From Escherichia coli (GTDB lineage Bacteria > Pseudomonadota > Gammaproteobacteria > Enterobacterales > Enterobacteriaceae): a stretch of 64,000 nucleotides of DNA. A program made the translations under genes and the position numbers. Shown piece by piece: positions 11,296 to 11,500 of this stretch. The stretch lies in the NCBI RefSeq assembly GCF_003334315.1, contig NZ_QOWR01000014.1, one strand, 5' to 3'. Below the pieces are notes generated by a model. The model was not told the origin of the DNA. It saw nothing but the letters and a program-made list of their open reading frames with translations, and made no database searches. Numbering within the stretch: the first letter of the stretch is position 1; the number at the start of each line of letters is the position of its first letter.

Positions 11296-11500
11296 TCTGA
11301 TGCCGCACGTAGGCCTGATAAGACGCGGACAGCGTCGCATCAGGCATCTTGTGCAAATGTCGGATGCGGCGTGAACGCCTTATCCGACCTACAAAAACAA
11401 ATTTATCAATGAGTTAGAAATCCCTTTAGGCCTGATAAGACGCGCCAGCGTCGCATCAGGCATCGTGTGCGAATGTCGGATGCGGCGAAAACGCCTTATC
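11296..11500. repeat. REP/BIME cluster (two REP pairs) between yacG and mutT
   Basis: Two near-identical ~90-bp units carrying the REP core (gcctgataagacgcg...cgtcgcatcaggc and gatgcggcg...cgccttatc). Confidence 0.9.

Follow-up and report, generated by a model that had tools for sequence, protein, structure and literature searches.

A composite four-REP BIME, already catalogued in Escherichia coli K-12, in the convergent yacG–mutT gap

The intergenic region between the convergent genes yacG and mutT was analysed in a stretch of 64,000 nucleotides of Escherichia coli DNA (the window), and four copies of the REP, the most frequent short palindromic repeat of the species, were found to occupy it in alternating orientation. 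We are confident that the best overall explanation is a known K-12 BIME in the shared 3′ region of the two genes, a lineage-specific filler that would provide 3′-end hairpins at the RNA level and a candidate IHF site on the DNA. In the ORF list and in the RefSeq annotation of identical DNA, the left gene is yacG (DNA gyrase inhibitor YacG; 11092–11289, + strand) and the right gene is mutT (8-oxo-dGTP diphosphatase; 11505–11894, − strand). The ORF ends at 11289 and 11505 delimit a gap of 215 bp (11290–11504), and the ORFs of the neighborhood encode CoaE, ZapD, YacG, MutT, and SecA. The segment 11270–11525 is identical to MG1655 110.9–112.0 kb in reversed orientation, an 801-bp query around the locus matched E. 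coli chromosomes with 100% identity, and the whole window corresponds approximately to MG1655 58.9–122.9 kb, reverse-complemented, and is K-12-type DNA. The element is listed in Table DS3 of Sutormin et al. 2019 (PMC6379681) as "BIMEs1 111431-111630, 199 bp", which is window 11308–11507. The cluster is therefore an already known, previously catalogued K-12 REP/BIME element and an ordinary find.

The REP order in the gap was Z-Y-Z-Y in a regular-expression scan, with nhmmer, and with a repeat finder, with orientation defined by the strand that reads GCC(G/T)GATG...CCTAC. The first REP, of Z-type (37 nt; 11309–11345, − strand; regular expression and nhmmer E 3.4e-11; hairpin −21.3 kcal/mol), starts 19 nt past the yacG stop codon, and its minus strand reads GCCTGATG...CCTAC. 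It is followed by a tail-to-tail linker of 13 nt (ATCTTGTGCAAAT; 11346–11358), which aligns to the inter-hairpin spacer of Rfam naRNA4, and by a Y-type REP (34 nt; 11359–11392, + strand; regular expression and nhmmer E 2.8e-9; hairpin −19.2 kcal/mol). A head-to-head L-type linker of 33 nt (11393–11425), recognized by an IHF consensus scan, by alignment to the Y-L-Z element of yaaA-yaaX, and by the published BIME-1 listing, leads to the second pair. This pair consists of a Z-type REP (36 nt; 11426–11461, − strand; nhmmer E 6.6e-12; hairpin −21.4 kcal/mol) with the head TTAGG, not GTAGG, a second 13-nt tail-to-tail linker (ATCGTGTGCGAAT; 11462–11474) that was also aligned with the naRNA4 spacer, and a Y-type REP (34 nt; 11475–11508, + strand; regular expression and nhmmer E 4.4e-9), which was folded alone. 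The two Z-Y pairs form an 84-nt direct repeat that is 92% identical (self-BLAST E 3e-26), and the repeat finder reported direct repeats of 64 nt and 18 nt at a spacing of 116/117 together with the hairpin arms. To the left of the first REP, 11294–11308 (+ strand) may hold a relic of a Y-type REP that derives from its 5′ half. This sequence, TGTCTGATGCCGCAC, forms the inverted-repeat pairs I7/I8 with GCATCAGGCA and resembles TGTCGGATGCGGCG; the candidate is weak and had no significance in nhmmer.

The first-pass annotation had described two REP pairs at 11296–11500 filling the intergenic gap. The two pairs were confirmed as four REPs within or at the 215-bp convergent interval. The block itself stood, with a true extent slightly later at 11309–11508. 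The description as an intergenic filling held for the first three REPs, which are fully extragenic, and needs a small correction for the last: the mutT stop codon (TAG, 11505–11507) is the CTA within the CCTAC head of the REP at 11475–11508. This REP thus shares 4 nt with mutT, three from the stop codon and one from the final sense codon.

The consensus GCC(G/T)GATG...CTTATC(C/A)GGCCTAC and the bulged hairpin of E. coli REPs (palindromic units) are common to all four units, which also resemble other E. coli REP/BIME sequences in their alternating orientation, their position at the 3′ ends of genes, and their many copies per genome. They are imperfect palindromes of 30–40 nt with a GTAG/CTAC head and a stem mismatch, dispersed in copies and extragenic, the fourth departing slightly from the last feature. 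The head is CCTAC in three of the four units and CCTAA in one, and the internal loop folds in all four. Both Y units read GTCGGATG...CCGACCTAC (or CTGACCTAC) instead of GCCGGATG...CCGGCCTAC. Apart from the TTAGG of one Z unit and the overlap of the last unit with a stop codon, nothing essential distinguishes the cluster from known REP/BIME sequences. A 13-nt REP core pattern had 10 matches in the window against 0.97 expected, and all 100 shuffles stayed below this number. A profile derived from the window REPs (nhmmer) recovered exactly eight strong copies (E 4e-12 to 4e-9), four of them at yacG-mutT, two at thiQ-yabI, and two at araA-araD, plus two weaker short-Y units at araA-araD.

At first sight, the regular 116/117-bp spacing and the strong hairpins could also be read as a CRISPR array, a canonical bidirectional intrinsic terminator, or chance palindromes, but these readings have next to no probability. 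A CRISPR array, which the first-pass annotation had already denied, was rejected because the gap has only two direct copies, separated by a single unique linker, and each copy consists of two inverted units of a repeat present genome-wide; REPs occur at a median of 19 places per genome (range 4 to 38; 5,426 complete E. coli genomes at megablast sensitivity). No hairpin in the gap has a U-tract after it, and no Rho-independent terminator (hairpin plus U-tract) was found in 11290–11504 on either strand. The ten core matches against 0.97 expected argue against chance palindromes.

The element was then compared with the known BIME classes. According to Ton-Hoang et al. 2012 (PMC3333891), BIME-1 consists of Y and Z1 split by an L linker that often has an IHF site, BIME-2 consists of tandem Y/Z2 units with short linkers, and "atypical" BIMEs are chimeras. 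The center of the gap (11359–11461) shows the head-to-head Y-long linker-Z arrangement with an IHF consensus that is characteristic of BIME-1 (RIP or RIB), for example, the RIP at yaaX-yaaA, and this central unit can be aligned to the Y-L-Z element with two REPs at yaaA-yaaX, although the gap linker is 33 nt long and diverged from the L motif there. Whereas a typical BIME-1 is a single two-REP unit of about 97 bp, the gap element has four REPs over 199–200 bp, with one extra REP on either side. Compared with BIME-2 and REP325, each Z-13 nt-Y pair fits the 77-nt naRNA4 model end to end, and the units are in tandem and vary in number among strains; however, a long L-type linker separates the gap units where BIME-2 has a short one, REP325 has six units and the yacG-mutT locus at most three, and no gyrase cleavage site was mapped in the yacG-mutT element by published Topo-Seq. 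The gap element is therefore a composite ("atypical") BIME, describable as a BIME-1 core with flanking REPs or equally as two BIME-2-like pairs joined by L. The Z REPs are given here as Z-type without a Z1 or Z2 subtype because the published labels for the same REPs disagree, the REPs flanking the RAYT gene being labelled Z2 in one later paper and z1 in another. The pairs also resemble REPINs associated with RAYT (TnpA_REP) in being inverted REP doublets and in having the ends of the unit indel within the GACC|TACA cleavage sequence. The E. coli RAYT gene (yafM) presumably lies outside the window, as judged by its K-12 map position.

Within the 33-nt linker, TATCAATGAGTTA at 11404–11416 (+ strand) is a perfect match to the IHF consensus WATCAANNNNTTR. 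This pattern had six matches in the window against 1.9 expected, and the argument therefore lies in its position inside an L-type linker, not in its mere presence. The L linker of BIME-1 often has an IHF site (PMC3333891), and the consensus match together with the BIME-1 class suggests that the linker is a candidate site for IHF binding and bending of the DNA. In SCU-125, which has a diverged two-pair allele, the perfect consensus is kept as TATCAACGTGTTA although many neighboring bases differ. In the three-pair allele of strain SCPM-O-B-8794, the IHF core is broken (TATCTGTCAGTTA), indicating that the site is not universally conserved.

Rfam RF02564 (naRNA4) matched the gap twice over its full length on the − strand, at 11312–11389 (78.4 bits) and 11429–11505 (77.8 bits), above the gathering score of 59.5. 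Judged at the level of sequence, these matches provide independent curated support for the identity of the REP pairs. They also raise the question of whether the two pairs are naRNA4-like genes for nucleoid-associated sRNAs that bind HU and condense the chromosome by bridging REP cruciforms, a reading that we regard as improbable. Both pairs match the model on the mutT-sense strand, and a 2015 mBio paper reports approximately 80% of REPs to be transcribed. However, RF02564 is itself a model of one Y+Z2 pair of REP325 (77 nt), and the match therefore restates REP homology and is not independent evidence for an sRNA gene. In addition, no sigma-70-like promoter was found in 11000–11900, and a 2026 preprint reported REP325/naRNA4 to be without measurable nucleoid compaction and REP-REP contacts to be absent in Hi-C.

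The position of the cluster beside a gyrase-inhibitor gene was also considered. If the cluster were a strong site of DNA gyrase binding and cleavage, as in BIME-2, its adjacency to yacG would be of interest; the geometry of the gap pairs is that of the BIME-2 unit, and in the literature gyrase cleavage sites are enriched in BIME-2, with Y REPs as the preferred site. The chance of this is slight, as Topo-Seq (PMC6379681) placed 0 cleavage sites in 111431–111630 under all four conditions, whereas the araD-araA BIME in the same table had 3, 3, 0, and 0 sites. In the same study, the BIME-1-class group was depleted in cleavage sites (3 observed vs 9 expected). The adjacency to yacG is most simply a coincidence, as the gap is short in most species and closer relatives have one to four REPs of their own types in it.

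The folding of the region is in line with the preferred reading, a known BIME in the shared 3′ region of yacG and mutT. When folded alone, the REPs had free energies between −12 and −21 kcal/mol, and each showed the canonical internal mismatch. For a 241-nt region, the values were −96.8 kcal/mol (z = −6.7) on the yacG-sense strand and −95.1 kcal/mol (z = −5.8) on the mutT-sense strand. The lack of a U-tract in the gap fits a role other than intrinsic termination, and most REPs described in the literature are not intrinsic terminators. By analogy with the REP family, we infer the RNA and IHF steps at yacG-mutT as follows. Both convergent transcripts would run into the cluster, and each REP would form a stable bulged hairpin. 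These hairpins would block 3′→5′ exonucleases, by which the 3′ ends of the yacG and mutT mRNAs would be set and stabilized, and they may dampen read-through into the opposite gene, partly via Rho. On the DNA, the 33-nt linker may be bound and bent by IHF. In published work, the presence of a REP between two convergent genes is correlated with increased expression of both, and REPs, like other stem-loops, set the 3′ ends of transcripts that depend on Rho. REP hairpins act as a barrier to 3′ exonucleases and set steady-state 3′ ends, and one model REP worked both as a stabilizer and, in part, as a Rho-dependent terminator. The effects of REPs vary with context, and terminal REPs did not uniformly lengthen mRNA half-life.

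Translation may be affected as well. REPs less than 16 nt from a stop codon lower translation by ribosome stalling, according to Liang et al. 2015 as reported in a citing paper. At the mutT stop codon the distance to the REP is zero, and at the yacG stop codon it is 19 nt; any effect on translation would therefore fall on mutT. Whether the REP at the mutT stop codon also sets the level of the antimutator enzyme MutT through ribosome stalling and 3′-end stability is a long shot. If this were true, variants of the locus would shift MutT expression, and hence the A:T→C:G mutation rate, between E. coli lineages; the relevant variants would be alleles with one, two, or three units, the three-codon extension of mutT in B2-type strains, and the IS621 insertion in the first Z REP of O26/O103-type strains. 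In the supplement of Harris et al. 2026, yacG and mutT appear only in differential-expression tables, with nonsignificant changes. A literature search for REP sequences together with mutT or yacG returned nothing relevant.

The locus varies considerably within E. coli. The two-pair gap was found in 1,974 of 5,426 complete E. coli genomes (36%), counted as at least 80% coverage of a 276-nt query spanning it. Many other E. coli strains are exactly 116 bp shorter and hold one pair, for example, Ceylon31, EC69, and SWHEFF_58. The Ceylon31 allele follows K-12 pair 1 through CCTACA and from there on matches the sequence that flanks pair 2 on the right; this junction places the ends of the 116-bp indel inside the 8-nt sequence GACCTACA. 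GACC|TACA is the sequence cut by TnpA_REP in vitro, and BIME copy number is known to vary between strains (PMC3333891). The position of the indel ends is compatible with gain or loss mediated by the transposase and equally with slippage or recombination. The unit number may shift by recombination between units, possibly via TnpA_REP.

The mutT stop codon derives from REP sequence in the K-12-type, Ceylon31, EC69, and SCU-125 alleles. EC69 and SCU-125 have lost the TAG of the REP by mutation, and their mutT is three codons longer, with a TAA inside the REP stem as its stop codon; the translated C-termini read KRVYAG and KRVYVG, respectively, before the stop. In SWHEFF_58, mutT is likewise 399 nt long by annotation. 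The Y REP of B2-type alleles (EC69, SWHEFF_58) has stem-breaking substitutions and deletions, and this decay, together with the many one-pair strains, argues for weak selection on the exact structure.

Mobile elements were also found at the locus. In strain 2014C-3050, IS621, an IS110-family element with a bridge-RNA recombinase, lies between GTAG and GCCTGAT of the first Z REP. The same junction, GTAG|GCCTGAT, was present in 181 of the 5,426 complete genomes, O26 and O103 strains among them. The insertion matches the published natural target ATCAGGCCTAC with its CT core, which in the window REP is at 11309–11319; this sequence has three exact matches in the window, all in Z REPs, and the Z REP of the cluster is a natural landing site for IS621. 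Separately, the match of NZ_CP026612.1 (laboratory strain DTU-1) to 11000–11800 is split by approximately 776 bp. An IS1A transposase is annotated there with a MutT feature on either side, a pattern that points to IS1 having inserted into mutT; the strain may be a mutator. Alternating REPs were also seen in the rsmC-leuV spacer of other E. coli, in the order Z-Y-Z-Y in TC_EC10 and Y-Z-Y in ETEC4071; the REP number thus differs between the two strains, and the middle Y-Z linker of approximately 24 nt lacks the IHF consensus.

For comparison with other species, contigs from one genome per species were searched with a degenerate yacG motif, which yielded 120 loci. In 79 of these, from other gammaproteobacterial species, yacG and mutT were convergent with a measurable gap; the locus of E. 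albertii, the closest outgroup, ends before the gap and therefore lies outside this comparison. The gap had a median length of 52 bp in the 79 species, with 48 gaps of at most 60 bp and 10 of more than 120 bp, indicating that the cluster is a lineage-specific filler. Close relatives carry REPs of their own types, one in Pseudescherichia, one in Enterobacter cloacae, and two to four in Citrobacter. In SCPM-O-B-8794, a divergent strain deposited as E. coli whose MutT is 90% identical, the gap measures 331 bp and contains three Z-Y pairs, which repeat every 116 bp and are connected by two homologous L-type linkers. The three pairs, their period, and their linkers indicate that the amplified unit is the whole 116 bp, including the linker. 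The cluster is thus the lineage-specific filling of an ancestrally short gap by repeat DNA, with a 116-bp unit that has been amplified or lost repeatedly.

These comparisons bear on whether the cluster consists of selfish or neutral REPIN-like doublets, spread and amplified by a single-copy REP-associated transposase, with no selected role for yacG or mutT. On this reading, the cluster would be tolerated because insertions between convergent genes do little harm. The gap was ancestrally short. Unit number ranges from 1 to 3, some lineages have decaying units, the ends of the indel fall on the TnpA_REP cleavage sequence, and BIME copy number varies between strains, the araA-araD element differing by one unit even inside K-12. 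Nevertheless, none of the E. coli alleles examined lacked a REP in the gap, and Citrobacter, Enterobacter, and Pseudescherichia also have at least one there, which hints at persistence, and the REP-derived mutT stop codon in four alleles also stands against a purely neutral cluster. We therefore regard this reading as possible but rather unlikely in its full form. A largely selfish or neutral origin is plausible in itself and does not conflict with an RNA-level effect, as hairpins in the 3′ UTR act on RNA whatever their origin.

The cluster has little discovery value, as REP/BIME sequences have been studied for about forty years and this element is already in the K-12 catalogue; its use lies in annotation. 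The preferred reading, a known composite BIME in a shared 3′ region, accounts for the unusually long yacG-mutT gap and for strain differences in the mutT stop codon and C-terminus, and it advises caution against calling Rfam naRNA4 matches sRNA genes. It also points to a natural target of the IS621 bridge-RNA recombinase and to a polymorphism of 1, 2, or 3 units for strain typing.

Two other REP clusters were found in the window. At thiQ-yabI, which the first-pass annotation had placed at 50712–50808, a Y-type REP (50718–50751, + strand) and a Z-type REP (50766–50802, − strand) lie head-to-head with a 14-nt linker between them; both were detected by regular expression and nhmmer and are identical to MG1655, where Table DS3 gives 72137–72221. 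The cluster it had named at araA-araD is also real and is a BIME at 56109–56289, supported by nhmmer, Rfam, folding, and comparison with MG1655. It comprises a half REP (56109–56121), Z(+) at 56126–56161, a short Y(−) at 56175–56203, Z(+) at 56211–56246, and a short Y(−) at 56260–56288, with a period of 85 bp and two Z-Y units in the window versus three in MG1655 (66551–66834). The REP counts are therefore 4 at yacG-mutT, 2 at thiQ-yabI, and 4 plus a half at araA-araD, and in self-alignment the yacG-mutT repeats align with one another and with both other clusters. The exact match found for the araA-araD stretch was K-12 substr. GM4792. The repeat being one unit shorter, the window is a K-12 relative that has lost one araA-araD unit and not MG1655 itself.

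The three clusters had further been called the only dispersed repeats in the window, and this agrees with our results: self-BLAST at E<=1e-3 showed no other interspersed repeat, a comparison that is blind to any repeat family with a single copy in the window, and for 58.9–122.9 kb, Table DS3 of PMC6379681 lists only 66566–66813 (araD-araA), 72137–72221, and 111431–111630. A search of the window for the ERIC/IRU core gave no match. The self-BLAST also showed two local palindromes, at 39335–39364 and 63534–63573, the first of which overlaps the end of the leucine operon leader (Rfam, 39216–39365) and is presumably the attenuator hairpin. Two further Rfam matches were recorded. STnc40, a Salmonella sRNA family, matched 11909–11978 (− strand, 84 bits), a segment that spans the 3′ end of secA and the spacer between secA and mutT. 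PssrA ("plasmid-encoded Shigella sRNA A") matched 17625–17714 (− strand, 105 bits), presumably near the ftsA/ftsZ junction by K-12 map position; this is chromosomal DNA, an odd location for a family whose name calls it plasmid-encoded.
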